Shown: positions 20,900 through 64,000 of the stretch, in pieces
Position numbering within the stretch: the stretch's first letter is position 1
Layout: each line of letters begins with the position of its first letter
From: Eremomyces bilateralis CBS 781.70
Lineage: Eukaryota
Direction: 5' to 3' (one strand)
Length of the DNA stretch: 64,000 nt
Assembly: GCA_010015585.1 (NCBI GenBank)
Contig: ML975160.1
The notes under the pieces: generated by a model
Told to the model about the DNA's origin: nothing
The model's input: only the letters and a program-made list of their open reading frames with translations
The model's database searches: none
Translations under genes and position numbers: made by a program

Positions 20900-23337
20900 G
20901 GACCAAGTGATGACAATTCGTGCCCGATCCTTCGGCATTGATGACAAGACGGCCCAAGAAGAGCTTGGAAGCCCGTAAAAGCGCGCTTGTACATCGTTTC
21001 CGCCATAGATATCTTCGCTTAGGCAGCAAACAAGTCTCCGAGATTCCACAGAGTGTTAAGCGCTGGACTGTATCTCGCAACGACCTCTGTTCCCATCGCC
21101 TCTTCGTATCCATGCAGCGTTTGCATGTACATATTCTCTGCCTTACCCTGACTACCTTGGTTTGCGTAGAGCAGGCCCAGGTTGTTGATCGTACCGAGCG
21201 TCGAGATGTGCTTCGGTCCAAGTGCCTCCTCCTTTCCTTGCAACGCTCGCATGTACATCTTCTCAGCCTCACCCAGCTTGCCTTGCTTGGCATAGAGGTT
21301 GTCTAGGTTGTTGACCGTGTCAAGCGTCGATGTGTGCTTTGGCCCAAGTGCCTCCTCAGTTCCGTGCAGCGCTCGCATGTACATCTCTTCTACCTCCTTC
21401 AGTTTCCCTTGGTCGGCGTAGAGCAGGCCCAGGTTGTGAACTGCCCATTCAATACCATTCTGTGAAATGCCGCATTTTGATATCATAGATAAACACCTTG
21501 CTACATGCTGGAGGAGTCGTTGCCGTATAACCCACCATTCTTTTATATTATTTCCGGGAACGTGTAACCCGATAAACTTTAGAGTTAGCCTCACAATGTC
21601 ATTATTCCACTCTGGATTTAGAACATGCATCGTCCATGAGTGTACACAGCTATGCATTCTGTACCCTCCTGACTCCACTGAATCCCGTGAGAACGAGTTT
21701 GCTTCCACCAGTCCGTGGTTACACAACACTCGAACCGCTGCAACGAAGTTTTTTTGGTCTTCTGTGAGTTTTCGGATCCATTCTGGATCACTTGAATCGT
21801 TATGACAGGGAAGCTCGAACCAGAGGTCCTGGTTGTCAAAATAAGCCCACAACTGAAGGAACTGAGCCGAAAGTCGGTTCTGTTGTTCCACATGCTTGTA
21901 CGAGATGTTCCATGTGGTGTAGAGCGTTCGATCTTCGTACGAGTTCAGCTCAGGACTTTTCTCTTTCAGTTTCAACCATGATTCTTTATATTGATGAAGG
22001 TACTCAGCCAAACCGGTCGATACTTGATCAAGATATGCTCCGGCGGTCGCAAGTGCAAGAGGGAGCCCGTCTTATTCATTGACGAGCTTGATAGCATCGG
22101 GATCTGTCATCCTAGTTAGTATCCTCTCTATAGGGTCAAAATAATCCTCACCATTGTTCAATCCTTCGCGTCTTGACACGTTCGACAGGATCTTAAGGCA
22201 ATCCTGCACATTCTCCAGCTTTTGGACTGGAATGCCATGGCCGATTTTGACCTGCGACGACCGCGTGGTGATGATGATTGATCCTTGATAAGATTCCAGC
22301 AGGTACTTCTTAATGTCCAATGCCGTCGGATCCGTGTTACCTGGTACCTTGGAATTGTCGTAGTTTTCGTATATGGCCAGCCATCTTACGTTATTTCGGA
22401 GACTCAGCCACTCTTTGACGGCTTCTACCACTTCATCCAAGCTTCCATTCAAATCCACGGCGTTAAGACACTGGGCAGACGGATGCTCTTGGCGTATTCT
22501 CCGGGCAGCGTTCGCAAAGCTTTGCTTCAGAGAGACTTCATCTTTGATATTCAGCCACAAGATCGCTGAGTATCTATCTCTATATCGCTTCGCGTATGCA
22601 ACTGCCAATTGAGTTTTACCAATTCCCCCAAGGCCATGAAGAATAGCAACGCAACGGCTGCCATCGCCTCTGAGCGCCTTGTGTATTTCCATGAGCTCTC
22701 TTTCTCTTGCAACGAAGTGCTCGGTTTCAGCAACATCGGAAAGACTGAAAGGTATCGCGAAGTCTTCGAAGTGACGACCTATACCGGTCAGTACCCCCCC
22801 CACGGTTTCATAATGGAGAACGCCTTACGATTCGATGTATTTTCGATCTCAGCATGAAGCCGTCGAAACACATTATCTCTCCCCTCACCATAGATCGGTG
22901 AAATACTCACGCCAAAAATTCCCAACAACGAATAGACTTTGTCTTCCTCTTTGGTAGTCTCACGGTCCTCGGTCCACGATATTCGTTCCGTGACGCCGAA
23001 TTGAGAGAGGAGCTTTCTTCGAAGTGCCTCGACTGGGATTTCTACAACCTCGCGAATTTGTCGCTCTAGAGATTTCTTGCTCCCAAGCTTCCTACAATCG
23101 TTGGAGAAAAACTCCACCGATTCTGGGGCGATCAGCTCTTGCAGAGTCTAGCCTCGAGTGAACCATCGACTTTTTCGAAACTCGACTTTCCAATATTGGA
23201 AATGCGAGTTGTTAGGGTCCAAAATCGGTCCTGCGACATCCGAGAGGTAGACATAGCATCGTTCTGCATCGCGATACCACCGAAACATGGAGTTGATGGC
23301 TTCTGAGAGCTCGACAAGATTGGTCTTATCGATGCAG
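20900..23337 (-). pseudogene. HET-NB-ARC-TPR NLR, 3' portion, disrupted
   Basis: HET core CIDKTNLVELSEAINSMFRWYRDAERCYVYLSDV and SRWFTRG*TLQELIAP (TGG to TAG at 23148-23150). P-loop HGLGGIGKT, IIITTR, and NE*DGLPLAL (stop at 22072-22074). TPRs of the form NLGLLYADQGKL...ALGPKHTSTL. The 3' end is approximate. Confidence 0.92.
21130..21440 (-). repeat. Tandem 126-bp (42-aa) TPR-coding repeats
   Basis: CCAAGTGCCTCCTC and GCTCGCATGTACATCT recur at 126-nt spacing. Confidence 0.8.
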
Positions 23338-23658
23338 ATGGGATCAATCTAGGCGAACATACCCAGTACGTTCTCCTAATGGGTTAATCCCTGGGACCCC
23401 CTCACCAACCGAGCTCCATTCCCTTTGCGCAATACTACGATTTGCCGCCAGACAAAAGTAGAAGAATAATAATAAAAGCATAGCCATTTCTCAGGGCATT
23501 CCGTATGGATATATATAAGACTAGTTATAACTTGTGGTCGAGTCAATCTGGCCGTCGTCCCAAACAGGCCTCTGGCCTAAATGGGCTCCGCTCTCCATAC
23601 TGACCGAGCCCAATCAGGCTCCTTAACCCAAATAGCCATTTATCGCAGTCCAGTATCC
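23338..23658 (+). repeat. Conserved element left end, copy 1
   Basis: Closely similar to 36460-36791 and 57150-57430, e.g. CAATCTGGCCGTCGTCCCAAACAGGCCTCTGGCCTAAATGGGC is in all three copies. Confidence 0.95.
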
Positions 23659-23714
23659 GTGCCCCATGACCGCCCCTCCCTTGCGCTTTTGCGGTTTACC
23701 AACTAATTAATACC

Positions 23715-23915
23715 ACATCGCCGAGTCCTATTACATATCTACCTCCTCACTTGGAACGCCTTCTCCGATGCCTGCTATCAAACCAAACCGGATTGACGTG
23801 AATGCTGACTTCACCCGGATGGCGACTATCGCCGCTGAGCTGGTCTCAGTAAGGTTCTCAGATAGACAGGCGATGACGACATTATGTTGGTTGACTTGTC
23901 TGAGCGCGTAAATAT
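23715..23915 (-). pseudogene. PNP_UDP (nucleoside phosphorylase) NLR effector-domain fragment
   Basis: NIYAL-QVNQHNVVIACL...SAAIVA...FTSIRFGLIAGIGEGVPS matches the usual HNVVIACLP...FPSIRFGLMVGIGGGVP pattern, but is degenerate and truncated. Confidence 0.75.
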
Positions 23916-24640: not shown

Positions 24641-27116
24641 TTAAAGAGAGATGGTAGACCGAACTTACTACACGTTGAAGTCCCCATCCCATACACGGTC
24701 CATCTGGTTCATTCCTTTTTAGCGCCGGGAGAGGCTTGGTGGCGCCAAGTTAGCGTACTAATAGACTCCAATCACAACGCGGTACGAAAATTACAGCTTT
24801 TGGGCCTTTTTTTCCCGCTCCATTGCTCATGGCAACTCTAATCTGAACAATCGAAGCGATCAACTATGCTTTCGATGCTCCCATCAGCTTCAGACGCCAC
24901 CGCTTCCGATGACGAGGTATCTGAGGATGAGCTCACCACTGAATTTGTATGGAGAGTGCCGTCTGATGCTACCACCGCTGCGGAAGCGGATCCGGAGTCC
25001 CAATTACAGCAACCTCAGGTTGAGCCTGCAACATCCTCCGCTGGATCTCTCCCTACGCCAATTGGACAACCTGGGGATGTCTCCTACATAGCTATTGATC
25101 CTGCTACTAAGAGGCCTTTAGGGCAGCCTGGGACGTACTTTAAAAAGATGCAAGGATACGTCTCATACTATCACTACCCCGAAGCGTTGCTTGATCTCTT
25201 CATTGGCGTCTAAGGCCCTCTCTGCGCTACCGACACCCAGAGTGTATCCTGTGGGACTCCAGGTTGTACTGGCTGCGGGATTTTCCATGGCAATGGTCAG
25301 TCCCTAGACCCAATGCTTCACGATCGCCCTCCCGCTTCCTTCGAAGAACTTGCTGAGCGATGGGATCTTCCGCTTGTTCTTTTCTCCCAGCTATTTGATG
25401 AAGGCATTTATAAGACGATCGCAGAGCACTCCAACCGGTACGCCCAGAGGCATGAAATCTCGATTAGGCCTGTTACCGCCGGCCATATCCGGATATGGCT
25501 GGGCCTTGTCCTTTACATGGGTACCCTTAATATCGCTTCTCGAGGGGATCTCTGGAGTAGGAATGGCCAGCGGCCTCTTCACTGTATCTCTAGGTTTATG
25601 TCCTTTCGAAGATGGAAGCAGATCAAACGGATTATCCACCTCTCTGATCCCGATACAGAGCCGCAGCCGACCTCCGTCCTCGACAAAGTACAACCAATTG
25701 CCTCGCTTTTAGGTGCTCGCTTCAGCCAAGTATATCTCCCCTCAAACTACGTCTCAATCGACGAGATTATGGTCAAGTTTACGGGTCGATCAAAGGAGAT
25801 TGTCTCTATTAAAAGCAAGCCTATCCCTGTTGGCTATAAAATCCTTGCCCTCGCCGATAGAGGCTATGTTTATAGCTTTCTCTTTACCTCAGGAGGAAGC
25901 TTTGATACCGGAGGAAGGAAGGATGCATCATCAATCCATGGTGTAAACTATCAGCCCCCCCATGGATACGAGAATCTTGAGCTTACGGCTACCTCAAAGG
26001 CGGTTATTACCTTGGCAGCCTCTCTTCCTGTCAGTCTCCGCAAGTTTGTTATCTTTATGGATAACTACTTTACCAATATTCGCCTGCTCTCAGTCCTTCG
26101 AAAAATGAGGATTGGGGCCTGTGGGACGACTAGGACGTCGTATAAAGAGTACCCGTTACAGCACTTCAAAGAGGTAAAGGACAATTGCAGATGGCCGCTT
26201 CAAAAGCAGGACTTCCTCTGCGTTCGCGATGTTGCCAGCCTCTTATGGAAGGATCGGGTACTCGTACGTTTCCTCCATACCATTTTTGAGCCAGAAGAGA
26301 ATGATTGGGCACCTCGGAGGCGTCCCGCGACTAGTACAGCTGCGTACCAGCGAGAACTTGATCAAATCTACCCTCCTGGGGTCCACGACATACCGGTTCT
26401 ACAACCCAAAGCTGCCAGACTATACAATAGCTTTATGGGAGGCGTCGATATCGCGGATCAACGCCGAGCTTACTTCACATCGCACCTAATTAGCCAGAAA
26501 ACATGGCATCCTATTCTCTTCTGGATACTCGATACGACTGCTTCGAACGCTCATATCCTCGGTACATGCCAGTTTCGAAAGCAGAATATTAGATACCTAC
26601 AGAGCCTTAAGGATTTCCGTCTACAGCTTGCCTGGAATATGGTCATCAAAGGTATCTCAGATGGTCATGGTCCCCGAGTAGTACAGGGCTTCAATGAGCA
26701 GGAAGGTCCTCAATTCGAGGCAACCGAGGGATCAGGAGATCCGGTAACTCGTACGTACGGCCAAATACGGAGTTCCCGTATCATACTACTCTTAGAAGTG
26801 GTGTTCATCGCCTGGCACGAATTTCAAGAGGGATGCGACGATGGTGTTGGTTGTGTAGGTGGAAAAAGCTAAGGGATAACCAAATCAAGGACCGAAGGAC
26901 CTTCTTTTGCTGTGAGATCTGTGGAGAAGGATTTCCTCTCTGTACTAGTTGTATAGAACCATTCCACAGTCAAAGACCTAGCTAGATACTATTAGATTCC
27001 TCTAACTATGGTAATTGTGTCTATTTACTTTATATGAGGATTGCATACAAATCAAATGGGACACCTTTTTTTTATATATATTTTTTTAAATCCTACTCCA
27101 TTTCAGCTGGCTTTAA
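24641..27116 (+). mobile_element. piggyBac-like DNA transposon, defective
   Basis: Contains a piggyBac-type transposase pseudogene. Candidate TTAA sites at 24641-24644 and 27113-27116, both read inward as TTAAAG. TIR similarity beyond that is weak, so the ends are tentative. Confidence 0.7.
24866..26985 (+). pseudogene. piggyBac transposase (DDD) with C-terminal Cys-rich domain
   Basis: Motifs SIDEIMVKFTGR, KPIPVGYK, FMDNYFT and YNSFMGGVDIADQ. A frameshift near 26755 separates the WCWLC...CCEIC...LCTSC-H domain. The N-terminal part is also interrupted. Confidence 0.85.
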
Positions 27117-28844: not shown

Positions 28845-31800
28845 ATGAAGTGGCGATTTCTGAAGCTCGGCAAGCAAGGCCAAGACAGGAGCAAGGTCGA
28901 GGAAGATTCCACTAGTGGCAGCTTGGCGCGCTCCCCGCCCAAACGATTCGGCCTCTTCAAGCTCCCCACCGATGAGAGCGTGGCCGATACGAACAATCAT
29001 GAGCACTACTACCCAGTCAACATCATTGCAGTACATGGCCTGAATGGTGGTGCGTACACCACATGGACCCATGATAATGGGACGTTTTGGCTTCAAGACT
29101 TCTTGCCAAAGCTTCTGCCTGGATGTCGCGTTTATACCTATGGATACCCTTCTCAGTTTGCCTTCAGCAAGTCATTAGCAGAGGTACAGGAGTACTCGCG
29201 ACTACTTTTGAGCTCAATAAGAGACGAATACGAAAATTGGGATCTGGTACTTTCAATCACATTGTCCGGTACCCGTTAGAAGAGCATATTAATCTGATGT
29301 TATCGAAGGGCTCTCGTACTATCATCTTTGTCTGCCATAGCCTCGGAGGCATTGTTTTTAAACAGGTTGGTTTATCACCTCCTGATATCGACTCCTTACC
29401 CAGTGCTGACTGCTGTAGGCTCTAGTGATTGCTCATGAAGATGACGTGGTGTATGGGGAAATTCTTAAATCCATTGCTGGTGTTGTCTTCCTCGGAACAC
29501 CACACAATGGCAGCGGCGTTGCGAATTTTGCAAATACCGTTGGCAAAATAATCAATGCCATCATAACAACAGCATCTTCTGGAGTTCAAACTAGAGCCAT
29601 CAGAACCGACCTGTTCAACTACCTCAAATACGATTCTAAAGCTCTCAAGGACCTCGATGTTTCAGTTCGAAATCGATTCCATGATTTAACTGTGGTCTCA
29701 TTTTGCGAAACTGAGCAGGAGTCTCCGTTCCCTTTCCCGGTGAGGCTCAACTCTGGCTTTATTTGGTCATGTTACCTTAGACCGACTGGAGGAACCACTG
29801 ACACTTTAGCAGATTGTCGATAAATACTCGTCAACTTTGGGCATACCAGGAGAGGAGATCATTCCTCTAGGGGAGAACCATCGGAGCATATGTCGATTCG
29901 GTGGTGAGACAGAGAGCTACAAAAACGTTTCCCGATCCCTGCGAAGAATCGCAAGAAACGCTCTAGCCAGAGAGCAGGCGTTCAAGCGAACAAGCATCCC
30001 TTCCTCTGACAGGAGTGAGTCGTTCTGGTTGCGAACCAACGTCCCAAGTGCCTAACACCTGCTAAGCTCTCGATGATTCCGAAAAGACCTGTTTCAAACA
30101 ACTCGGAGTCTTTGACGTGGCGGACGTCAAAAGGATATCACCCTCACCAGCCAAGGGCACCTGCCAATGGATTCTAGGCCATCCTAGGTTCGTTTGCTGG
30201 CTTGATCAAACGGAAAATACCCTTCTGTGGCTTACAGGCCGTCCCGGCTGTGGTAAGACGATAATGTCGCTATTCTTGGCTAAACAGTTAGAAGAAGCTC
30301 GGTCAAATCGAGCTCCGAGCAATGTTTGCGTATTCTTCTGCAATGACAGACTCAGCGCAGAAGACATCTTGAATGGATTAATATTTCAGATCATCAGTCG
30401 TCATCGTTCACTCATCCGACATGTGAAGAGAGAGTTCGAGATTCAAGGCCAACACATGTTTCGGTCATTCACAACACTTTGGAATCTACTGGTCAAGATT
30501 GCAACAGATCCAAAATCTGCCACAACTTCTATCATAATTGATGCATTGGATGAGTGTAAGAAAATCACTCGCGATAATCTTTTGCTCTCGATTCGAGACT
30601 TCACGAACACATCAAGCGATTCAACGGGAAGCAAACAGCATGTCAAATTTATTTTGACTGGCCGCCCTGAGCTAGTTCATCTCGAGAAGAGCGTCGGCAA
30701 CGTCGCTGAGCACGAAATTGTAATTGACGAAGGTCAAACAGGCTATGACAGAGACCTACGGATCTTCATCCAACAGAGACTGGACGAAATTTGTCAAAGA
30801 CACAATTTGTCCCACGAGACGATGGAATTGCTTCGTCAATCACTCTACTCCAAAGCCGGCCAAACCTTCCTGTGGGTACATATGGTGCTCGAGTCATTAG
30901 AGAGCAGCCTGCTTGCGTCAAAGAAGGACATTCAAAACATCATTACGCAGATTCCACCGGCCCTGGAGAAGACGTATTTGTGCTTCTTATCCGAAATACC
31001 TTCTAAGTACATAAGCAAAGCTCTGATGCTCCTCAAGCTTATAGTGGGAAGCCTAAGACCTTTAACGTTAGATGAGATCAACATCGCCTTCGCAATAGAT
31101 GCGACTCATCGCACGTTAGGAGAAGTTACATCGAACTGTCAACCTGCTATTTTACTCACCATCCAAGGTATATTGGGGCCCCTGGCCAGAGTATCGGACA
31201 ATAAAGTGATGCTAGTCCACCCATCGGCCAAAGAATTCCTTTTACAACGTAAGAGCGCCGGTGGCGACTTTCCCGCGATATACGCGATTAGCGAGGAGGA
31301 ATCTGCGGCTCTCACTGCATCCGCATGTATGCACTACTTGCTGCTCAAGGACTTCTCTGTGGATCTTTTCGAACTTGAAACTTCGCCTACCGAGTCTAAT
31401 TCCGACTACTCTGATATGATCGAGGGCTCGGTGGTTTCCATACCATACGGCAGCTTTTGGAACGAAGGCACAGACGACCTCGATGCCTTTGGCTTGTTCA
31501 AAGACCCTGGTCTCCTTGATGCGGAGATATGCCAAGCCCTCGTTTCAAAATACGCTCTCTACCAGTATGCATCTCTACATTGGACTGAACATTTCGCCCT
31601 CTGCGAAACTACTGCACCTGTGGAGCTAAGAGAAACTGCCAAGAAATTACTTGATACAGAAACTCTTAACTGTTCCAACTGGCTGCGTGTCTTTTCCGCG
31701 GAGTTCGATGCAATTGGCCGCAGCATCCCTAACAAGCCTGATAAAGTCACTCTGGCGGCTTACTTCGGCCTCCACGAGACTCTTAACGATTTGGTCAGTA

Positions 31801-32876
31801 GTGACAAATCAATTCCCCCCGTACAGAGGGACCAGGCCTTGTTCTGGGCTGCCCATGAGGGCCATGTTAGGAATGTTAGCATACTCCTTGGAGTAGATGC
31901 AGATCCGAATGCTCGGAGTTCTAACAGGGAGACGGCACTCATCGCTGCTGCTCGGAACAACCATCTTAACTGTGTAGTCACCCTTTTGGCAGACCAACAG
32001 ACTCATCTGAACATTCGAGGCCCGAAGGGGCGGACAGCGTTGGCATTTTCATGTAGCAGTGGACACGACCAGGTTGTCAAAGAACTGCTAAGTCGAAATG
32101 ATTGCATGACTGAAGAGGAGGACGATAGTGGGGCCACTGCGCTATTTTGGGCCATTGGAGGTAGCTACATCTCAATCGTCTCCGAGTTGGCGAATCTTCC
32201 GACAGTTGATATAAACCATCGTGACAAGAAAGGCCGCACGCCCTTGTCCTGGGCAGCGGGAGATGGAATGGAGGAAGTCGTGAAGGTATTGCTCAATATG
32301 CGCGATATCGACTCCAACCTGGAAGACTCCAACGGACGATCACCTCTCTCCTGGGCAGCTGGTAACGGCTGCACAGCGGCAGTCAGAGTTCTCCTTCGAA
32401 ACAATGAGGTGGACAAGGCAAGTCTTGACAAAGACCAGAGGAATGCAATCTCCTGGGCGAGTGCAGGTGGCCACTCGGATACACTGCGGATGCTTCTCAA
32501 TCGCGGATGTCCGGGAGTCGATATCAAGGATGTGGATGGCTGGACTCCTCTGGCATGGGCAATTCAAAATGATTCTCCGGGCACTGTGGAAGTACTCCTT
32601 TCGAGCGGGTCAGTCAACCTAGAACAATCGGATCATAGTGGAAGAACACCACTATTTTGGGCGGTTGAATACGGCCATATTGAGGTTATCAGGATACTTT
32701 TGCGCGAAGGCGCTGACCCAGAAAGACAAAGCCATAAGGGCGAAACGCCACTCATTAGGGCAGAGAAAGTCGGACGAGCTGATATCTCAGACGAACTTCT
32801 CAACCATGTGAGGCAAGGAGGCAGCATGACGCATTTCGAGCAACGAAGTCAGGTACCAAGTGCGATGCGTAGGTGA
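28845..32876 (+). CDS. NLR-like protein: SesB-type alpha/beta hydrolase, NACHT, ankyrin repeats; apparently intact
   Basis: Hydrolase motifs IIAVHGLNG, FVCHSLGG and FLGTPHNGS. NACHT motifs GRPGCGKT, IIIDALDEC and FLWV. About ten ankyrin repeats (GRTPLSWAA). Four GT-AG introns between about 29247 and 30066. Confidence 0.9.
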
Positions 32877-36245: not shown

Positions 36246-36459
36246 GTATTGCAAAAGTTTGTCACTACCAGGCGTCCTGGATATCACTCAGGAGTTAAAG
36301 TTTGGTACGTGTTTAGCTCGGAAAATACACATTACATTGAGTAACCGGCCACAATATTTTCCGCGCGCCAAAAGAGGATCCTGATCTGGCTCCTTCACAT
36401 AAATCAAAGACAGCAGTTTTCTGCTGTCCTTGATGCTAGATCGACCGGAATAGATGCAG

Positions 36460-36876
36460 ATGGGATCAACCTAGGCGAACATACTCAGTACGTTCTCCTG
36501 ATGGGTTAAACCCCTGGGACCCCCTCACCCACCGAGCTCCATTCTCTTTGCGCAATAATACTACGATTTGCCGCTAGGCAAAAGTAGAAAAATAATAAAA
36601 GCATAGCCATTTCTCGGGGCATTCCGTAACTATGGATATATATATAATGCTAAGTAGTTATAACTTGTGGTCGAGTCAATCTGGCCGTCGTCCCAAACAG
36701 GCCTCTGGCCTAAATGGGCACCGCTCCCCATGCTGACCGAGCCCAATCAGGCTCCTTAACCCAAATAGCCATTTATCGCAGTCCAGTATCCATACTGTTC
36801 TAGCCTCACGAAACAGACCCAGGCAACTTGTCGCAAGATGCCCCTGTTGATTTCAATGCCAATGAACAATCCTATC
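36460..36876 (+). repeat. Conserved element left end, copy 2
   Basis: Matches copy 1 to about 36791 and copy 3 further, through CCCCTGTTGATTTCAATGCC...CAATCCTAT. Confidence 0.95.
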
Positions 36877-37381
36877 GGCCACCACTGCAGGTGTCCTTTC
36901 TAGTCCCGCCTCCACACAGGACAACCGACAAATCATATTTTGAGCGCAGTGACCATGGTAGGCGTTTCATCCGCAGTTAGCAGTTTTGATGGACTGAGGT
37001 TAGCTCTCCGGACTCATCAGCACAGTGAATATAATGCTTCATCGTCGTCTAGATAGTGGCTCGGGAAGCGGCCTGCTATTACCCAAGAAGGAGGAATATT
37101 GTCATCTTTAGGCCATTCTCCGGCACAAATAAATCTGTAGGGAAAATGTCCTGGAATTTCGCAGGTCTCTTGAAGGGGTTTTACAGGTTATTTTCCCTCA
37201 GCTGGGACCTACGTGACCAGAAACCTCTCACTTGTTTGAAGCCTCAAGCTTCAGTTTGAACTGGTATTTCGAGCTCTTGCACTTTTCACCTTTCATGAAC
37301 GACCCTCTTGCCAATTATAACTTGAAGCTTGCGCCTGCCACCTGCTATCCTTATGCGACGTCTACATCTTAAGCGCTCATT

Positions 37382-48186: not shown

Positions 48187-48709
48187 AACAGTATTGTTGT
48201 CTACTATTGCCGTTGAAAGGCTGACGGGGGGGCAGGCGACAGGAAGGCGGGCGACCTAATCCATCTTATGCGCAGCTAGATGGAGACTGCTGACCGCCTC
48301 CTTGTTAACACCATCAGCACAGCGGAAGTTTCGATACCGAGTCACCAGGCCTAGCAAGCGAGGCAGACTTCTGTTTCGCCCTGGCCGAAGGTTTATGCAT
48401 GACGCCCTTTCGTCAACGCCTTTCACGTAGTACACAGGCCGCTTTGATAGCCGGGAGTTGGTGACATGTTTTGCAACCCTGCTCCAGAGTGCATTAGTGG
48501 AATGGGGCGCATAAGCATTAATGAACCTGCATACACCTGAGCCTGCTGTGCCGCAATCTTGACTGGAAGCCGCCAATCAGTAATTAAATCGTGCTAGGGA
48601 TGTAGCCTCCTGCCCTTTAATCTTTGGATGAATGTTACCTTAGTTTACGGTCTAATACGAAGATTGTTTCGAATTGGTTGAACTAGCAGGCGGATGGACC
48701 GATTCAAAT

Positions 48710-49259
48710 CTATACAATAGGTTGACCATTTGGAAATGTACCTGGGCATGAGGGTAGTTGCTGTCCCGCAATGAGATGTATCGTTGCCAGGGTGCGCCAC
48801 CAACTTGGGGTTGAACCTTCACAAGTCCAAGCCTGTGGGTACACCTTAATAGATTTGGAGTCCTGTGGCAATATGGCATGACAATGGATTTCGCATGTAT
48901 ATATATTGACGTTTTTTTCTTTTCCCTCTTTCATTCTCTTCTTCATCTTTCGTTTAGTCCGATACTAGCTAGGTAGCAATAGTCTCCCTCGAGACAGATC
49001 TTACTTCTTCGTACTGTAACAAATGCTTCAAGTTATTTAGCAACTTCAGGAGACACGTCTGCCCCAATGATATGGGTTTCGCTGAATTGTTAATTGAGAG
49101 CGTTGTCTTGCCGGATTTGCTTGCCGGATTATTATGTAGCTCCTCGAGTTGCCCTGCTGGGACCAGGCCATTAAAGATAGGCTCGAGTGTGTTAAAGAAG
49201 ACCGTAGATTCCGTATCCAGATCATGTTCCAGGATTTTAAGCTTAGTATTATACTTCAT
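48710..49259 (-). CDS. Possible small two-exon hypothetical protein
   Basis: ATG-started ORF ending in a GTAAG donor, with a candidate downstream exon at 48710-48960. No recognisable domain. Confidence 0.3.
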
Positions 49260-49393
49260 AGCTCTTCTAACTCTCTACACTAGGTCGACCTAGTGTTCGA
49301 TGGCTGAGATGACGAGCGGGAGCAAAGCGAAACACGACTCTAACAAACTTGAAACCTGAGATTCGGCGAAAAGCGGCCCGAGCCGAGGAAAGT

Positions 49394-49497
49394 GGAGGTA
49401 GAGCTGGTAAGTTCCCTATTCTGGTTCAGCCATCCCTGTTTTAGGTTTAGCACCTCCGAGCTCTCACCCCGAGCATTGCCGAGCCTTCTTCGATGTC
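49394..49497 (-). repeat. ~105-bp dispersed repeat, copy 2 (inverted)
   Basis: Reverse complement reads GACATCGAAGAAGGCTCGGCAATGCTCGGGGTGAGAGCTCGGAGGTGCTAAACC...GGGAACTTACCAGCTC. Confidence 0.8.
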
Positions 49498-49701
49498 ACA
49501 GGCTCACAGCCCGCGTTGGGTGAGCTAGTGTGATACAAAATGGTGTCTCTTGTGATTCGCAGACCAGTCGCAAGTGAATATTAAATTGTGTATTGGTTGC
49601 GCACTGCGTTTAAGACGAGACTGACCCTTAAGGAATCAGGAGAGAAAGAGAGAGAGAGAGATTCATACGCCTGTCAGGCCTCTCGGCGAGGCCCATGTGG
49701 G
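49493..49701 (-). repeat. ~200-bp inverted repeat, right arm
   Basis: Reverse-complement match to 42354-42552, with a GA microsatellite in place of part of the left arm. Confidence 0.9.
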
Positions 49702-49745
49702 AAGTCCAGGGTGGCTATTTAGGCAAATACAAGCCATTCCGGCTT

Positions 49746-51053
49746 GGCTGGTGAGATTTTACATCCCCGCTAGTAATGGTGGAAATTACTCGCTTAACTG
49801 GGCCTCGCGCGCAATGTCATATCTTCTTCTGCGAACAACCTCAATATTTCAATGTATTCCTTATTAAGCCTATCTTCTTTCTACTGACGTCGCTGTCTCT
49901 TGCGCGGGCTAAGTCCTTTCCAAGCATTTGAAGCCGTCTCTGCTGCAGCGCGCTTAGGACGCTATCTATGCACATCCCCAGACCCAAAAAGGGGATTTTG
50001 AGCATTGACTTGTGCAAATTTTTCAGCGTAGAAGGCTTCTATATCTCCAAAGTGATAGTTCCATGCCATTGTTGGAGTGCAGGAAGCATACACTCCCCTT
50101 ATAGCGAGAGCCATATTCCGTGCTTCGATCAGTTCTGCCGAGTCATTTTCTTGTCCTGTCTCGGTCAAAAAATTGGTCACTGTGCCAAAGTCACTGCAGT
50201 TATGCAGAACAGGCTGAAGCCGTCGACGCTCGATGTCAGCAAAGAACTCTTCCAACGACGGAGGTTGCCAAGTAGGCTGAAGAGGGGAAGGTATCGGGAC
50301 AGGTGTATGGGTCAACATAGACTGGTTATCTAGTGATGTCTTAATTGAACTCCTCCTATTCAAGTGCTTCTCTCTGATTGCCTTCCTCTCGCTGCGGATA
50401 TCGGTGGCAGAGACTAGCGTTTCCGGGTCCTCCTTTTGAATAGCAGCCATTATCTGCATCGGCCGTACCCCCGCATGTGTCATTGATTTAATTATGTCTT
50501 TCTATACTGATATACGCCTGCGATAGACATTATGCGCACTAGGGTTAAGTGATCGGGGGTGGTTATGATGCTTGTGTATAATCTCTAGCTTCCACTGGTC
50601 GTCGCTTTTGTTCTTGAATACAACAAGCCTAAAGATACACCCTATTGTGCGTGTGCTTGTACTTAGAATCCTTGCTCTTGACTGATAGTTTCTGGATCGA
50701 TCACAGTGATAGTAATATTGCGTCTTTATATCAGAATGTTGAGGTTTGCTCCGGTTGAGTATGAAGCCGTAACATGCTGCATGCCATGGATCTTGAGAGC
50801 ATTATAGGCTTCTTCATAGGACCCGTGAAGACTATCTGGAGGAGGGGCGAAATCCTCTATGCTGAGGTCTATAAGAGAAGGAATAGATTGAACATTGATA
50901 ACTAATTGAAGTTGTCCCTAGGCGAAGACGATTAGACAAAGGAAATTGCGCGCTAGGCCCAGTTAAGTGATTAATTTCCACCATTACTAGCGGGGATGTA
51001 AAATCTCACGGGGATGTAAAATCTCAAAAACGGGATGTAAAATCTCACCAGCC
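49746..51053 (-). mobile_element. Non-autonomous MULE (Mutator-like) element with TIRs, internally deleted
   Basis: TIR GGCTGGTGAGATTTTACATCCCCGCTAGTAATGGTGGAAATTA at 49746, and its reverse complement ending at 51053. Interior encodes a decayed FAR1-like N-terminus (YYYHCDRS...GCIF...HKHHNHP...AGVRPMQI). No DDE core and no clear TSD. Confidence 0.8.
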
Positions 51054-56924: not shown

Positions 56925-57142
56925 ATAGTTATGAGTTATCTAACTAGTTAACTATAACTACAATTAGTTAATAGAATGTCAAAAAATCTTGTTAATTAAA
57001 TATTTTGGTTTCCCTCGGAAGATATTAAGTGCTACTGAACCTGTATGGATCAAAATATTTCCGTTGTCCAGAGCCAAATCCTCACAAACTTGAGGTTCAA
57101 TCCTCAGCTTTCTGCAGCATCTGCTCCAAGATCGATACGTTA
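56925..57142 (+). repeat. Element right end of unit B
   Basis: AT-rich TAGT-type tract followed by a conserved terminus. 57083-57142 matches 63849-63908 at 58 of 60 nt. Confidence 0.9.
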
Positions 57143-57149
57143 GATGCAG

Positions 57150-57537
57150 ATGGGATCAACCTAGGCGAACATACCCAGCAAGTTCTCCTGATGGGTTAAA
57201 CCCTCTCACCAACCGAACTCCATTCTCTTTGCGCAATACTACGATTTGCCGCCAGACAAAAGTAGAAGAATAATAAAAGCATAGCCATTTCTCGGGGCAT
57301 TCCGTATGCATATAAGGCTAGTTATAACTTGTGGTCGGGTCAATCTGGCCGTCGTCCCAAACAGGCCTCTGGCCTAAATGGGCTCCGCTCCCCATGCTGA
57401 CCGAGCCCAATCAGGCTCCTTAACCCAACTAGCCTTCCATCCCAGTCTAGAACTAGCCTCACGAAATAGACCCAGGCTCCCAGGCAATATGTAGCAAGGT
57501 GCCCCCTGTTGATTTCAATGCCATGGAGCAATCCTAT
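57150..57537 (+). repeat. Conserved element left end, copy 3
   Basis: Starts ATGGGATCAACCTAGGCGAACATACCCAG and aligns with copies 1 and 2 with small indels. Confidence 0.95.
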
Positions 57538-59199: not shown

Positions 59200-60259
59200 C
59201 TATGCTGCTAGGCGATTGAACAACTCGAATTCCATCCTTTCGGCCGCCTTTGGACCATGAAGAATGTCACCAACCATATCTGAGCCGGGCGGGAAGTCAT
59301 GCTCGAACCGAGGCTCGCCAGCACCCCTCATATTTGCTAGGACAGCCTGTCTGAAGTGCCATCGCAAAACCTGATCGACAGGTCGTTGAAGGTTATCTCG
59401 AAACTTTTGGTCAAGACACTTGCCGGCTAGACCGTTCGCATCGCGGGTGAAGAAAACAATCTTATAGTTGTCCTAAAATAATCGTTAGCCACTGCATCTC
59501 CAATTGAAATACAGAGTATCCTTACGTCGGGGTTAATTGAGAGGTTAAACATATCGAACAACTCGTGTATATCAGTTCGAAGCAACAATCCATTTTGTAC
59601 AGAGTTAATGGCTTCACCCTTCTCCGGCAGAATTGTAATCCAGCGATCGTAGCCGTTCTTCGTCCAATGGTCGTGGTAGGCTAGTGGGAAGACATGAGTA
59701 GCGTGAAACCCCGTCCAGTCGTCAAGGTCGGAATTGATTGCCTCTACTCCAGATATGACGCATCGACGATCTCGCGCACGTACAGCTGCACAGAACGGTT
59801 TGACCCGAGTTCCAGTGGTGTGAGATATCGTACGGAGAAGCCACGGCTCATTGTTGACCGAGAAAGGATCTAGTTAAAAAGCCTAGTTAGTCAAGCACAA
59901 CGAGGCAATTACATAGAAACTTACCAGCAGCAGTTATATAGTACTTCCCCGGCTGAAGCTTGCTGTCATTCCTTTCAATTTAGAAGGATATTTTTTAAAA
60001 TATTCTATTAGATTTTGGTATCGTCCTCATATCGTAATTCAAAGCTACTTGTGAACAAGACAAGAATCTCTACCATCGACAAGAAGTTGGCGTTTGTGAT
60101 ACTGTTTGTGAGGATTAGACCGCCAAGTACTGTATTCCGATCGCTGGCATCATAGATATGAACGTCTCGCCCTCGTGAGCGATCTCTTGGGGTCATAGTT
60201 TGAGTCGGATTAGAGGAGTTGGAGGGGCAGTTTGATACCGGAGAGGATAGAGACGACAT
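59200..60259 (-). pseudogene. HNH endonuclease paralog of 37382-38476, interrupted
   Basis: Shares RDVHIYDA, VLGGLILTN, RDRRCVISG, NSVQNGLLL and ERMEFELFNRLAA, and has the same two intron positions. A ~30-bp AT-rich insertion at about 59980-60010 introduces stops. Confidence 0.85.
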
Positions 60260-62009
60260 TGTAAACGTCGTGGACGCCGTAGACGTATCATATTCATGGA
60301 GACTGTAAGAGGGACCGAAGTAGGTACGGTAATTGAAAATGATGGTAAGAGTCTTCGAGAGTGGTATTGAGTATGACGATGGCAGATTGCGGAACAAAGA
60401 ATGGAGAAACCACAGCCAAGTTCACACTAAGCCCAAAGAGGCAACTTACGTACTATTTCCGTGCTGGAGTATACCTCAGCAAGCTCAGGCTATTTGCGTT
60501 CGTGCCTGAGGCAACAAACCACACTATACCTAATCGGTAAATGCAGTTCTCGAACAAATAGCCTGAGGATCCTGTCAATGACGCTCACTGATAGATCGAG
60601 AATTTGTATGTGTCTTTCACGGTTTTGGAAAATCTCACGCGGTTCATTGCCTCAGGCACTACCACAATAGCCTGAGCTTGCTGAACTTATAACCAGGTTT
60701 TTACTGTAACTGATGCCGCCGCTCAAGGCACGCCAGATGGCTATGCTAAACGGATGATGTATTAATTCTTCTCGAATATGCTTCCGTCAAAGGTCGCGGA
60801 TGAGCCCCTCGCAATTGAATGCTTTTGTTTCTCCATCCTTGGACGAACATGCGGCATCCACTGAATTGGGGATATCATCGTCCGCGTTTCCGCCCATGAC
60901 GCCAACTCGAAGCTGGGATACAGTAGGCTCCAGCATTCTGGGGACTCGCGAGTAAACACATTTTGTGCGGAAGGTTTACCATGAATACCGATCACCCTCA
61001 AGGGTGGTGCATGCGAAAATCCTTAGGTCTCGAAGTTTATTGGTTTTGAATTGACGAGTATGTTTATTCAATTCACCTTGGCCCTCCTGCTGTGCTTGCC
61101 TAAGTACCATCCACGAGCAAGATGGCACGTGTGCAGATCCTCTCTTTCTTCGCACCTTCATTAACTATATTTTTCCTAAGAATAGTAGTATGGTGACTTT
61201 GATTCGCATCGTCAAGACACGTCCGTGGACTAATGCTGCCACCTACCCTTGCGTTGGAATTGTCGTATTGAACTTGATATGAACTCTATTCAATAGCCAT
61301 TAGGGTTTCCCAAAACCAAAAATCTATTTCTGCTTAGATCTCAGCTGGGAAGGACTTCCAATGCACCCATCAGAATGCATAGCATCCAATATTCCTGGAT
61401 ATCTACCGCATCTTACCTCCACAGCAAACTCCATCTCCCTTTGCTAAGGCCAGTACCTGCGGTCCTGTCCAATTGTTTCATGTCCCCAATTCTTAATCTG
61501 TAATGACTAGGACCATGAGCGCCGTAAAGTTACGAACAGGCCAGCCTCCAACTATTTTTGGTCACGAAAGTCGATATTACTCAATATGCAAACGCATTTA
61601 TTTTCCGGGACTGCCACTTTCTCGACCCGCCTTCCCTGGATTTACCCCCCGGTCATTCATCAATCTGGCGGTTGCAAAGATATATATGGCTTACGAAATT
61701 GCATGGCCAACAAGAGACTTCAAATGCATGCAAATCGAATGAAGTAATATGGTCTCGACGATGAGCACGCGAATTAAGCTTTCCTGACCTCCATGGCCAA
61801 TGAGTGCGACTCTATCTCGGTATCGATGAACCAAGGGCTCTAATGAGATGTTTAGAACTTAAACCTGCGGTTTCCTTGGAATTTCTGGACATATCCATAT
61901 TGTCTTGAAGTGGCTGTCAATTTAGCTTGGACTATCTGGATTGTTACTTCTAGAAGAGGCGACACTATTTGATGCCAGTGGACATTCACACTGCACCAGT
62001 ATCGAAACA

Positions 62010-63416
62010 ATGTCTTTCTCGTCCCGCTTCGACACATGGCTTTCATGTACCTTGTTTCTCGTTTTCCTAGCTCTGATATCATTCACAGCAGCAGACGTTA
62101 CAATAATCCCCGGAAATCCAGATCCGAGGCCTTACAATGAGGAATTCGACAGGCGAATTAGTTCCATTGATGAGCTATTTCAAACTAGCGCCTTCAATGA
62201 GGCACACTATACTCTCAACGACACCCATATTATCACCTCTTCTGCAGACACTCCAAACGGAACAATCTCCAAAGACACATATGCGTCATCCGACTCCTTC
62301 GTCCGGAGTACCATCCAAGCATGGGGTCAGCACCATCATCTAGTCATTCGTCCAGACGAAGTATGGTTTACCATATTGGCACAAATGAACTTCTACATGA
62401 ATGACCACGCGGAGGATGTACGTGACGTGTTTGTCACATTTGAAGGAAAGCAAGAAATCAGAGTCTTTGACCGGACATGGCATCAAGTGATTGACCAATT
62501 CGCTGAGGAGATACAAAAACGTGTCAAAACTCCCTGGTTACTCGACTGGATGATGCCGGAATTCAGTACCAGTACGGACAATGACGCGACGACGGCAACC
62601 GTGCTCATGATGGGCCTCTTCCAAGCTTACTTCGACTACTTAGGGGGTATCATTTGCGGATTGCCCTCAGTCACCCTCCTAGGTACCAAGGCCGACTGGG
62701 AGCGACTACTCGCTAAACTCGACCATCTGCCAGATTTTGGTGCCGAGCCGACAATGTACCAGGGCCGTTTGAAACCAATCCTCAGTCGGTTTGTGGAATC
62801 TTTTGATAAACCGAGCGACCCCAAAATCCGCGAGTTTTGGAATTCCATTATCAATGCCGAGCCCCAGCACTTGTGCGGAGGTCCGCCCTACCGTATCTCC
62901 GGCTGGCTGACCGGGTTCATATCCTGGGATAAGGACGGGAAATACATGGCGACCGGGACTACGAATGAACTGCTTGACGGGATCTCATATCCGTCTTATG
63001 AAATCGACAAACTTCCAATCGGGTATGCGGGGACACCGATCACGCTGTTGGACTATCCTCGCCCAAGGGCCCCAAAGTTCCCTGCGTACATAATCGCTGG
63101 CAATCTAGGGAAGGAAATCAAACAAACTGTACCAGCTGGCTATCTCGATGCCCTAGCCAGCGTCAATTCAAGCCTGGCAGATATCGAGCGTGCAGGTCTT
63201 GAATCAACCCCCAAGAAGCATTGGACGGTCCAGCCTCTCAATGCCTGGCTGATGTATGGTCCAGTACCGACGAATGAGACCAATCGCCGGGACAGTGGTG
63301 ATACCGAACTGAACAACTTGGTTAGCATGATCAGGACAGGGACCTGCGATGCGTCTCAGGACCCAGGAAAACCGTTTAATATCCTAAATCCGCCACGAAA
63401 AAGGAGGGCCAATTAG
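62010..63416 (+). CDS. DUF4419 family protein with predicted signal peptide, intronless
   Basis: Motifs HHHLVIRPDEVWFTIL, FEGKQEI, PEFSTST, CGLPSVTLLGTKADW and ISGWLTGF. Hydrophobic N-terminus from the ATG at 62010. Confidence 0.8.
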   Translation: MSFSSRFDTWLSCTLFLVFLALISFTAADVTIIPGNPDPRPYNEEFDRRISSIDELFQTSAFNEAHYTLNDTHIITSSADTPNGTISKDTYASSDSFVRSTIQAWGQHHHLVIRPDEVWFTILAQMNFYMNDHAEDVRDVFVTFEGKQEIRVFDRTWHQVIDQFAEEIQKRVKTPWLLDWMMPEFSTSTDNDATTATVLMMGLFQAYFDYLGGIICGLPSVTLLGTKADWERLLAKLDHLPDFGAEPTMYQGRLKPILSRFVESFDKPSDPKIREFWNSIINAEPQHLCGGPPYRISGWLTGFISWDKDGKYMATGTTNELLDGISYPSYEIDKLPIGYAGTPITLLDYPRPRAPKFPAYIIAGNLGKEIKQTVPAGYLDALASVNSSLADIERAGLESTPKKHWTVQPLNAWLMYGPVPTNETNRRDSGDTELNNLVSMIRTGTCDASQDPGKPFNILNPPRKRRAN

Positions 63417-63689
63417 CGCCCGAGGATGGAAGCCGGCTTTTTCCACGGCAAACTAAGGGACTTCCAGTTGGAGGGGGCAGTCTTGGCTCCTCAGATACGG
63501 TTGCTCTAGGTTCATTGGACAGTACTCTACAGTTTGGCTCTGCAAATGGAGCTGCTGGAGCGGCTATTCGGGACGGATCGAATGTTGACGATGCTGCGGC
63601 ATGCCAGTGGCGATTCAAGGCTACGCAAACATTCAACTGTAACATAGGACCGAGAGCAGAGCCAACTACATGAATTTGTTTAAGTTGCA

Positions 63690-63908
63690 GTAGTTAGTTA
63701 ACTTAACTAAGTTAGTTAACTAGTTAGTTATAAGTTAGTTAAGTTAGTTACAATTAATAGAATGCTAAAAAATCGTGATAATTAAATATATATTTTTCCC
63801 TTGGGAGATATTCAGTGAAGTGTTACTGACTGCTACTGAACCTGTATCCACAAACTTGAGGTTCAATGCTCAGCTTTCTGCGGCATCTGCTCCAAGATCG
63901 ATACGTTA
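63690..63908 (+). repeat. Element right end of unit C
   Basis: (TAGT/AGTT)n tract, TTAATAGAATG, GATATT-AGTG, CTACTGAACCTGTAT and the terminal 60 nt are shared with 56925-57142. Confidence 0.9.
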
Positions 63909-64000
63909 GATGTAGCAGGTGTCCACCCAGAAGTGTTCCAATCCATCACGAGCAGCCTGCTCTCCGCAAAATTCGATCTTATTGTAGCCAGCCTTGTTCT
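63909..64000 (-). pseudogene. HET-NB-ARC-TPR NLR, 5' portion (continues beyond the window)
   Basis: Minus-strand translation NKAGYNKIEFCGEQAARDGLEHFWVDTCYI is the HET segment expected immediately before CIDK. Too short to appear in the ORF track. Confidence 0.9.

Follow-up and report, generated by a model that had tools for sequence, protein, structure and literature searches.

A three-unit head-to-tail array in a split HET gene of Eremomyces bilateralis points to a giant-transposon family homing to a conserved HET motif

Introduction

In bacteria, ICEs and recombinase-less cis-mobilizable elements can be stacked by tandem accretion at one att site, as in the ICESt1/ICESt3 family of Streptococcus thermophilus. 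Integrons pair a platform integrase and its neighbouring attI with promoterless cassettes, every cassette closing with an attC. Cryptons span a few kb, with little or no cargo besides the recombinase gene; PiggyBac elements target TTAA and duplicate 4 bp on insertion; and Helitrons, which encode a Rep/helicase protein and have 5'-TC and 3'-CTRR ends and a hairpin, insert between A and T without duplication. Solo LTRs and MITEs are found in unrelated contexts, with a separate target duplication for each copy. In Starships the DUF3435 tyrosine recombinase, or captain, is the 5'-most gene and points inward, and terminal inverted repeats are common without being universal. For the Starships, the parts of PMC10104507 drawn on here describe direct repeats that arise because the termini match the target, as well as a captain recombinase able to act in trans, and a circular intermediate is reported in the portion used here of a preprint (10.64898/2026.09.21.753150). 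The survey of Gluck-Thaler and Vogan (2024; PMC11162782), in the text and tables drawn on here, mentions tandem and nested Starship insertions, gives 15,020 bp as the size of the smallest reported Starship, and lists 15 Starship-type recombinases and no delimited element for Eremomyces bilateralis; the array boundaries described below would therefore be the first for this species.

Results

The window, that is, the whole stretch of 64,000 nucleotides that was analysed, contains a locus found in one sample only; a further run, X3, labelled as another organism, yielded next to none of the stretch, which speaks neither for nor against an empty site. A preliminary description had proposed that its insert is a head-to-tail array of three cassettes, with GATGCAG followed by the same 320-420 bp of left end (LE) at 23331, 36453 and 57143, and with a common right end (RE) upstream of both 57143 and 63909. 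Exact matching and blastn of the window against itself, on which the LE coordinates below are based, bore out this layout.

23331..23337: core copy 1, GATGCAG; read on the minus strand, it supplies the final base of a codon, followed by the Cys and Ile codons of the HET motif
23338..23658, plus strand: LE1, left end of unit 1
36400..36452, plus strand: RE1, right end of unit 1, of which only ~45 nt can be aligned to RE2 and RE3
36453..36459: core copy 2, GATGCAG, between RE1 and LE2
36460..36875, plus strand: LE2, left end of unit 2
56968..57142, plus strand: RE2, right end of unit 2
57143..57149: core copy 3, GATGCAG, between RE2 and LE3
57150..57537, plus strand: LE3, left end of unit 3
63754..63908, plus strand: RE3, right end of unit 3, ~97% identical to RE2 over the final 60 nt
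63909..63915: core copy 4, GATGTAG, reading C-Y-I and not C-C-I

The 25-nt LE terminus (ATGGGATCAAYCTAGGCGAACATAC) has three exact copies in the 64-kb window (23338, 36460 and 57150), all on the plus strand, with no match in 100 shuffles, and GATGCAG lies directly upstream of all three. The right-most core, GATGTAG, is a single transition away from the remaining three cores. The units, given earlier as 13.1, 20.7 and 6.8 kb, measure 13,122, 20,690 and 6,766 bp and stand head to tail in one orientation, for an insert of 40.6 kb. An LE lies at the left flank and an RE at the right flank, and the internal junctions read RE-core-LE. Campbell integration would give just this circular permutation, whereas a split small repeat would give the opposite order. 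The direct repeats at the two boundaries match the target (GATGCAG on the left, GATGTAG on the right), the same core is found at both internal junctions, and one core copy is part of the restored HET reading frame.

The divergence of the ends by substitutions and indels, also claimed earlier, was seen in every LE pair: blastn identity was 91.0% over 345 nt for LE2 and LE1, 89.7% over 320 nt for LE3 and LE1, and 83.9% over 434 nt for LE3 and LE2, the longer alignment of the last pair indicating ~90 nt common to LE2 and LE3 and not shared with LE1. With indels left out, the LE pairs are 93.5-95% identical. Identity is 96.9% between the 64-nt stretches that end at 57146 and 63912, and a second RE block (56968-57031 versus 63754-63817) matches at 83%. 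Terminal inverted repeats are weak, the best being 10-11 of 18 (p ~0.02-0.07; equalled by random stretches of the window in 83-368 of 5,000 trials). Beyond the core, LE resembles the host sequence on its own side (9 of 15 in register, p ~0.003), and RE2 and RE3 are similar to the opposite host flank (10 of 20 in register, p ~0.017), a pattern in keeping with binding sites for a recombinase on either side of the crossover. RE1 has no in-register similarity to the flank, and shuffle tests based on local alignment gave no significant match between ends and flanks, only the in-register test giving p ~0.003-0.02. The view that ~100 bp of the ends derive from HET was abandoned because of these non-significant tests. 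One tblastn alignment of a HET homolog extends 17 residues into RE3, which is suggestive only. In metagenome scans of a mostly non-fungal collection, neither the 31-nt invariant LE block nor the 22-nt core plus LE terminus had a match.

The insert interrupts, cleanly and in frame, a minus-strand NLR gene of HET-NB-ARC-TPR architecture. The break point lies within the codons of the conserved HET motif WVDTC|CIDK, the site reading C|TGC|ATC on the minus strand.

63916..64000, minus strand: host NLR gene, N-terminal portion of its HET domain, running off the window end and reading ...GYNKIEFCGEQAARDGLEHFWVDTC
20950..23330, minus strand: remainder of the host NLR gene (Pfam HET, NB-ARC and TPR matches)
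22791-23330, minus strand: C-terminal part of the HET domain
22075-22824, minus strand: NB-ARC domain
21022-22071, minus strand: TPR domain

When four HET-NB-ARC-TPR homologs were compared with the window by tblastn, residues ~54-81 aligned to 63992-63909 on the minus strand with 74-86% identity and residues 82-840 aligned to 20950..23330, the match running up to ...WVDTCCI at 63909 and resuming with DK... from 23330 downward. Deletion of 23338-63915 in silico restores an open frame, GLEHFWVDTCCIDKTNLVELSEAINSMF, free of stops over the 90 codons read, and intact paralogs and homologs read through the HET motif. The remainder of the gene carries three in-frame stops (23148-50, 22072-74 and 21019-21), and a permissive tblastn search of the window with the pieces of the host HET gene turned up no additional HET fragment. 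The 7 bp had been called an att-like core, and one core does occur at all joints; its membership in a conserved HET-domain motif, which is the most informative feature of the locus, had been missed.

The sole recombinase of the array lies in unit 2.

39419..41298, plus strand: DUF3435 tyrosine-recombinase ('captain') pseudogene (Pfam DUF3435, tblastn)

Pfam DUF3435 matches this region in pieces between 39419 and 40911 (E 7e-4 to 5e-18), and all seven full-length recombinase homologs align between 39419 and 41268 in tblastn. The gene has three in-frame stops (39665-67, 40387-89 and 40912-14) and an Arg in place of a conserved His, and its N-terminal 90-120 residues or more were not detected by tblastn of the homologs or in the translations. 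A frameshift or mini-intron at 39665 was ruled out, since the translation shows an in-frame TAG. The gene model P0001, which is 99% identical to the unit 2 recombinase, is listed as 'tyr', fam01 (Starship YR), in tables S3 and S4 of PMC11162782, and family number 1 is Phoenix according to Table 1 of the same survey. The recombinase homology begins 2,960 bp past the start of LE2, on the plus strand and pointing inward, with a DUF7881+HNH_2 gene in between; the distance to LE2 becomes ~1.5 kb if a 1,484-bp HNH stretch, absent from another copy, is removed. In tblastn of the homologs, units 1 and 3 showed no trace of a recombinase at E<0.01. A word-index search of the recombinase piece against longer proteins gave no match, and a HMMER search with the recombinase gave 51 matches, two of them at E<=1e-10.

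The remaining content of the units is as follows.

24842..26982, plus strand: PiggyBac-like transposase of unit 1 (DDE_Tnp_1_7 + zf-Tnp_2), with a stop at 25211-13
30066..32873, plus strand: NACHT/NPHP3_N-ankyrin NLR gene, unit 1 cargo, an open 936-codon frame, single-copy by depth
33740..36341, plus strand: DUF6589 gene, unit 1 cargo, with an in-frame stop at 35556-58
37373..38132, plus strand: DUF7881+HNH_2 gene of unit 2, within the 1,484-bp stretch 37199-38682
42351..49704, no strand assigned: 7.3-kb segment of unit 2 with ~200-nt inverted repeats (86-87% identical) and a sacsin-like ORF
49751..51009, no strand assigned: 1.26-kb segment with 65-68-nt inverted repeats (94-95% identical) and a FAR1-domain ORF
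59430..60421, minus strand: DUF7881+HNH_2 gene of unit 3, an inverted paralog of the unit 2 gene
61926..63413, plus strand: DUF4419 gene, unit 3 cargo, an open 496-codon frame

The 7.3-kb segment is probably a nested transposon and the 1.26-kb segment probably a nested Mutator-like relic, so that ~10 kb of the 20.7-kb unit 2 consists of probable nested transposons. The units had been described as differing in cargo, which holds insofar as the window compared with itself by blastn showed no other similarity among them beyond the ends. The exception, overlooked in the preliminary description, is the DUF7881+HNH_2 pair of units 2 and 3 (72.6% identical over ~670 nt in blastn, in opposite orientation). 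Around the PiggyBac-like gene we found no convincing inverted repeats or TTAA ends. Domain scans of 129 ORF translations (30 with 150 codons or more, from the whole window, and another 99 with 75 codons or more, from the insert) found no reverse transcriptase and no Rep/helicase domain, and Rfam and tRNA scans of the window found no RNA genes, neither 5S nor tRNA. Overall, the array looks old and decayed.

To place the ends in a wider context, contigs of runs X1 and X2, the public run probably being that of the source genome, were matched to the window at a likeness of at least 80%. The LE is multi-copy by depth: in X1, the summed contig depth, which is not equal to copy number, was ~255 in single-copy stretches and ~1,170-1,600 in LE-containing bins. 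The region of the PiggyBac-like gene (23336-28004) likewise had several times single-copy depth. Another copy in the run is without 37199-38682, the joint running from 37198 to 38683. Among the matches listed, one contig (depth 199 in X1 and 187 in X2) has flank-like sequence up to 23313 joined to 36453, with 17 different letters in between that read D-K-S-S-S-A on the minus strand. Since this is the usual continuation of the HET motif, this one contig junction, among the matches listed, suggests that another HET paralog carries an LE at this very codon.

Discussion

We favour, with moderate confidence, the reading that the 40.6-kb insert is a three-member head-to-tail array of a Starship-like tyrosine-recombinase family, integrated at the 7-bp site GATGCAG of a HET motif. 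A circular form of each element would carry an RE-core-LE junction, and a recombinase would exchange strands between the core of the circle and the identical 7 bp in the HET gene in a Campbell-type reaction, leaving one core at each end and the HET gene split. Because each integration would regenerate usable cores, more family members could enter at the same place and in the same orientation; alternatively, circles may have fused before integrating. Since the sole recombinase lies in unit 2 and is now dead, units 1 and 3, which kept only an LE of ~330 bp and an RE of ~45-175 bp, would have moved in trans, or in cis within the array. Several observations count against this reading. The recombinase is a pseudogene, and no enzyme in the window is demonstrably the one that acted. 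The same end repeat would also result from a site-specific DDE transposase that duplicates 7 bp of its target. With the locus present in one sample, no empty site of another strain, excised circle or change in unit number was seen. Moreover, the inverted repeats are weak and the likeness of ends and flanks is partial, RE1 lacking it and the local-alignment tests being non-significant. Phoenix, the published family, is reported in the passages of PMC11162782 drawn on here to have most of its insertions in AT-rich sequence and not in genes.

The array had been proposed to have grown by one integration after another. That the units belong to one family and are joined at one core agrees with the anatomy, the in-frame split, the Starship-type recombinase and the second HET paralog, but the stepwise order is not distinguished from arrival in one step, as nothing in the window sets the order of events. 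A pre-formed multimer or cointegrate circle of the same family and target, or amplification by unequal crossing-over followed by cargo replacement, would agree with the common orientation and core of all three units, with the ~97% identity of the last 64 nt of RE2 and RE3, and with the HNH_2 paralog common to units 2 and 3. We consider this rather unlikely. The LE and RE copies differ by indels, as diverged family members should, and because blastn finds nothing alike beyond the ends and the HNH gene, amplification would need near-total replacement of cargo while an LE of ~330 bp stayed 93-95% identical.

Less likely again is that the units are site-specific cut-and-paste (DDE) transposons, the 7 bp a target-site duplication and the recombinase mere cargo. 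The 7-bp direct repeat with weak terminal inverted repeats would suit such elements, as would the PiggyBac-like transposase of unit 1, with a likely start ~110 bp past LE1 and a region of elevated depth, and a DUF6589 gene (role unknown) adjoins RE1. However, PiggyBac inserts at TTAA with a 4-bp duplication and no TTAA-flanked inverted repeats surround the PiggyBac-like gene, domain scans found no such transposase in units 2 and 3, and the recombinase may occupy the position typical of a captain.

It is very improbable that the DUF7881+HNH_2 nuclease cuts the HET motif and repair copies the element in via short HET-like ends. Two of the three units carry the HNH_2 gene, in a region of ~5 times single-copy depth, and the ends weakly resemble HET sequence. 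Nevertheless, unit 1 is without an HNH gene, the two genes differ in position and orientation, and the copy elsewhere that lacks the HNH stretch suggests that HNH behaves as a passenger; homing would also not duplicate a 7-bp core, and it would need far longer homology than the 15-20 similar bases observed.

We give equally little credence to LE being an independent short repeat (a solo LTR, MITE or promoter module) or to a Helitron-like rolling-circle array, with the boundary position incidental. LE is non-coding and multi-copy by depth, and Helitron-like elements can form near-tandem arrays, according to the part used here of a preprint (10.1101/2025.11.13.688278). However, all three LE copies of the window have the same core upstream and two of them follow an RE, the final RE closes the array at the other half of the gene, the 129 ORF translations scanned yielded neither a reverse transcriptase nor a Rep/helicase domain, and rolling-circle copying should give identical cargo. 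The first three of these findings, together with the missing reverse transcriptase, led us to reject a solo LTR or MITE origin of LE on the copies in the window; a Helitron was rejected because no Rep or helicase domain was seen in the ORFs scanned, the ends do not fit and the units have a 7-bp core in common. A DIRS-like element was set aside for want of a reverse transcriptase or Rep domain in the scans, a Crypton because units of 6.8-20.7 kb hold several unrelated genes each, and an integron because the only recombinase, of DUF3435 type, lies inside unit 2 and the units are multi-gene with two different ends.

Taken together with the reading as a stacked Starship-like array, the locus points to a giant-transposon family homing to a conserved HET motif. 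We can only tentatively propose the wider view, which may well prove wrong, that a Starship lineage homes to the DNA encoding WxDTCCIDK in HET-domain genes of cell death and allorecognition, with paralogs as landing pads, the genes knocked out, and arrays of recombinase-less cassettes moved by captains. If so, HET paralogs would serve this lineage as 5S rDNA does other Starships, and each insertion would knock out an incompatibility-type gene. Since HET/NLR genes police cell fusion, an element disabling them could ease its own horizontal spread. Known Starship targets are 5S rDNA, AT-rich DNA and a few short motifs, so a HET codon motif would be a new 'safe haven' and a direct link between giant transposons and the genes with which fungi recognise non-self. 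Captain-less stacked units with well-kept ends would show Starship-type recombination assembling, and perhaps co-mobilising, modular arrays, which bears on how cargo is gathered and exchanged, and would be a eukaryotic counterpart of bacterial accretion with cis- or trans-mobilisation by a neighbouring or distant captain.

The novelty claimed at first for an att-delimited tandem array in fungi was too strong: with tandem Starship insertions already in print (PMC11162782, in the text drawn on here), the array as such is not categorically new. A HET-motif target and recombinase-less units with conserved ends appear undescribed, and the literature searched contained no report of a HET-motif target for Starships.

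Among known systems, integron cassette arrays also have head-to-tail units of different cargo with recombination sites between them, but the likeness drawn earlier to such bacterial cassettes is loose, because each unit here has its own two ends and the sole recombinase sits inside one unit. The array is without a platform integrase and attI, and each multi-gene, transposon-containing unit has two distinct ends of 45-420 bp. Like Cryptons, it combines a tyrosine recombinase and a presumed circle with short direct repeats that arise as the element recombines with its target, and with inverted repeats that are weak or lacking; unlike theirs, its recombinase is classified as a Starship YR in the tables of PMC11162782 cited above. 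Tandemly accreted bacterial ICEs may be its analogue in organisation, with att-type-delimited units stacked at one site, some of them recombinase-less and dependent on a neighbour, whereas the array is eukaryotic, uses another recombinase family and has an intragenic target that is not restored. With Starships it shares a DUF3435 recombinase that points inward and may have the captain's place near the 5' end, a short direct repeat common to termini and target, variable cargo including NLR genes, probable nested transposons and tandem insertions. It differs from them in that its units are small (6.8-20.7 kb), two of the three lack a recombinase yet have conserved ends, the recombinase is dead, and the target is a protein-coding HET motif, in place of 5S rDNA, AT-rich DNA or some short and degenerate motif. 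The Starships of 5S rDNA (Voyager, the Enterprise family and the Arwing family) follow the same strategy, disrupting one copy of a conserved, multi-copy and individually dispensable target, with longer direct repeats, reported as 6-16 bp, that compare with 7 bp here; in contrast to these, the array's target is no RNA gene but a motif at codon level in a family of protein paralogs.

Three units share a left end, a right end and a 7-bp core

The window contains exactly three copies of the 25-nt sequence that opens the left end, at 23338, 36460 and 57150 (left ends LE1, LE2 and LE3 of units 1, 2 and 3), each on the plus strand and immediately preceded by the core GATGCAG, and none of 100 shuffles of the window gave a match. 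These exact starts bear out the preliminary description, which had placed the core and a common left end at 23331, 36453 and 57143. In self-blastn of the window, LE2 was 91.0% identical to LE1 over 345 nt, LE3 was 89.7% identical to LE1 over 320 nt and LE3 was 83.9% identical to LE2 over 434 nt; with indels left out, pairwise identity rose to 93.5-95%, in keeping with the earlier statement that the ends have diverged by both substitutions and indels. The right end said to be common to the junctions at 57143 and 63909 (GATGTAG) was also recovered: the 64 nt ending at 57146 and the 64 nt ending at 63912 (right ends RE2 and RE3) are 96.9% identical, with 83% identity in a second, more internal block. 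RE1, which ends at 36452, has only ~45 nt in common with RE2 and RE3. The terminal inverted repeats are weak (10-11 of 18 positions). In RE2 and RE3, short repeats of TTAG/TTAAC type form an AT-rich tract ~150-220 nt from the end (56900-56960 and 63690-63760), which could serve as recombinase arm sites or be no more than low-complexity DNA. The units are 13,122, 20,690 and 6,766 bp long, in agreement with the 13.1, 20.7 and 6.8 kb first given, and their cargo differs as described, except for one gene with DUF7881 and HNH_2 domains that provides the sole other blastn likeness between units (72.6% identity, inverted):

37199-38682, unit 2: DUF7881+HNH_2 gene region
59203-60421, unit 3: DUF7881+HNH_2 gene region, in the opposite orientation

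The core consists of codons of the HET motif

The two flanks of the insert are halves of one minus-strand gene, whose larger part is as follows:

Left of 23331, minus strand: C-terminal part of HET, NB-ARC and TPR repeats (Pfam)

The final 85 nt of the window code for ...GLEHFWVDTC. With the NB-ARC piece as query, many Pezizomycotina yielded HET-NB-ARC-TPR proteins ~1,000 residues long, and in tblastn residues ~54-81 of four such homologs aligned to 63992-63909, while their next residues (DK...) resumed at 23330 and reached ~20950. When 23338-63915 (the insert plus one core copy) is removed, an open frame reading GLEHFWVDTCCIDKTNLVELSEAINSMF is obtained. Since the homologs span the split and the frame reopens on this removal, the core is part of the most conserved HET motif, in which it supplies the final base of a codon and the whole Cys and Ile codons after it. 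The "att-like core" of the preliminary description stands as one 7-bp sequence at all boundaries, with a single transition in the right-most copy, and its identity is revised to that of HET motif codons. The host NLR gene has three in-frame stops, which indicates that it lost its function some time ago. No 5S rRNA or tRNA gene was found within the window. The region 1-15300 holds housekeeping-type genes (a ClpB/Hsp104-type AAA ATPase, a thiolase, a polysaccharide deacetylase, a UDP-glucose dehydrogenase and a chitin-synthase-like glycosyltransferase), so that the array adjoins core genome and not a repeat desert.

Boundary order fits a proposed crossover of circular elements at the core

The outer boundaries of the array read gene-core-LE and RE-core-gene, and the two inner boundaries read RE-core-LE. 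This order excludes the RE and LE together being one small repeat scattered in the region, and it is circularly permuted in the way that a Campbell-type crossover of a circle (RE-core-LE) with the target would bring about. Beyond the 7 bp, LE resembles the host on the LE side at 9 of 15 positions in register (p ~0.003), and on the RE side RE2 and RE3 agree with the host at 10 of 20 (p ~0.017); RE1 showed no resemblance to the host flank in the in-register test, and local-alignment shuffles of ends against flanks were not significant. One homolog's tblastn alignment extends 17 residues into RE3. We read this likeness as the limited similarity that would be expected around a recombinase crossover; it does not prove that target sequence has been captured.

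The best-supported reading is that a captain-type tyrosine recombinase (DUF3435) would integrate circular Starship-like elements site-specifically at the core in the HET motif, with more family members entering at the regenerated cores; alternatively, circles may fuse and then integrate. One-step integration, or local amplification, in place of stepwise accretion is less likely and, like the three alternatives considered with the cargo, explains the whole anatomy less well than recombinase integration.

Unit 2 carries a decayed recombinase

DUF3435 matches in pieces at 39419-40911 in unit 2, and all seven full-length recombinase homologs align within 39419-41268, with no other match in the window at E<0.01; by these alignments, units 1 and 3 are without a recombinase. 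The gene is 3 kb away from LE2 and oriented inward. Its frame is stopped at 39665-67, 40387-89 and 40912-14, the latter two stops being crossed by homolog alignments, the conserved His of the "MGH" stretch is replaced by Arg, and at least the N-terminal 90-120 residues of the homologs are unmatched. Judged by its reading frame, the unit 2 recombinase is a pseudogene. A 67-nt piece of its coding sequence (39692-39758) recurs inverted 2.1 kb downstream at 41893-41959 with 91% identity, which points either to a rearrangement or to part of another recombinase copy in inverted orientation. A 298-residue gene model (P0001), annotated in Eremomyces bilateralis CBS 781.70 as a hypothetical protein, is 99% identical to the unit 2 recombinase. 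Supplementary tables in Gluck-Thaler & Vogan 2024 (PMC11162782) class the P0001 gene as a Starship-type recombinase of "fam01" and record 15 Starship-type recombinases and 0 delimited elements for this strain. Table 1 of the same paper gives Phoenix as family number 1; we take "fam01" to be family number 1, hence Phoenix.

The left end is repeated in the genome

Two public sequencing runs of one sample (X1 and X2) contain ~80% of the query words and are probably the source, and a third run with another organism label contains almost none. Run contigs were matched to 20001-40000 at a likeness of at least 80%. Summed depth was ~255 (X1) over single-copy stretches such as 28672-36008, ~1,170-1,600 in the bins with LE1 and LE2, ~870-1,900 over 23336-28004, which includes a PiggyBac-like gene, and ~430-530 over 38677-40000, where a second recombinase contig is ~88% identical. 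Summed contig depth is not copy number, and LE is therefore called several-fold repeated in the genome and no more. Among the joints listed, one contig (depth 199 in X1 and 187 in X2) runs from flank-like sequence, which stops at 23313, across 17 other letters to 36453; on the minus strand these letters read in frame D-K-S-S-S-A and lead into ELSEA.... Since D-K-S-S-S-A, the usual HET-motif continuation, differs from the DKTNLV of the host gene, the contig appears to join a different HET paralog to LE via the same core and the same codon. A further contig runs back from 36509 to 23396; the simplest account is that it represents the junction of units 2 and 3 in the window, so that it does not count as independent. 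Paralog P0054 of E. bilateralis, located on a different contig, has no HET call in Pfam, and its gene model is without exactly the 21 residues around the motif, which is a hint of a further case; in two other paralogs (P0056 and P0063) the motif is uninterrupted.

Cargo genes and decay

Unit 1 has a transposase gene whose apparent start is ~110 bp past LE1:

23769-26982: PiggyBac-like transposase gene with DDE_Tnp_1_7 and zf-Tnp_2, stop at 25211-13

Although this gene supplies a DDE enzyme, no TTAA-flanked inverted repeats were found around it, and a DDE transposase making a 7-bp duplication is an improbable source of the boundaries. Upstream of the PiggyBac domain, a short NACHT-type N-terminal fragment (DPLCIPGTR...WLSGWAG; 24416-24529, minus strand) contains a further GATGCAG; the fragment is probably a relic and its GATGCAG a chance match. 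At the stop 25211-13, an other-copy contig of twice single-copy depth has C where the window has T. All eight premature stops checked (21019-23150, 25211, 35556 and 39665-40914; the host gene and the recombinase have three each, the PiggyBac-like and DUF6589 genes one each) are TAA or TAG, with no TGA, a spectrum that would agree with mild repeat-induced point mutation (RIP) on repeated sequences, or simply with age. The NACHT-ankyrin and DUF4419 cargo genes still have open frames.

The DUF7881+HNH_2 genes occupy different positions in units 2 and 3. That of unit 2 lies between LE2 and the recombinase, within a 1,484-bp stretch missing from another copy, which has 33 other letters instead, and the region reaches ~5x single-copy depth in the run. 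This stretch has the behaviour of a small module that is mobile or often exchanged, and homing driven by the HNH gene is a very improbable origin of the array. Just as improbable is an incidental short repeat, or rolling-circle copying, despite the several-fold repetition of LE.

Comparison with known systems

The preliminary description named no fungal precedent for an att-delimited tandem cassette array; tandem as well as nested Starship insertions are already mentioned in PMC11162782. In the passages of the Starship and Crypton literature compared, there was no report of a HET-motif or other protein-coding-motif target, or of naturally occurring units that lack a captain yet keep conserved ends and stand together at a single site; a GATGCAG-type repeat might stand in direct-repeat table S13 (PMC11162782) or in a bioRxiv supplement. 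HET-motif targeting by a Starship-like family would rest on one decayed locus and one contig junction. Long direct repeats accompany conserved multi-copy targets such as 5S rDNA, and one Starship family has an over-represented 10-bp target motif of unknown nature (10.1101/2024.06.28.601215); a circular Starship intermediate is reported (10.64898/2026.09.21.753150), Starship direct repeats arise from the matching of termini with the target, and a captain can act in trans (PMC10104507).
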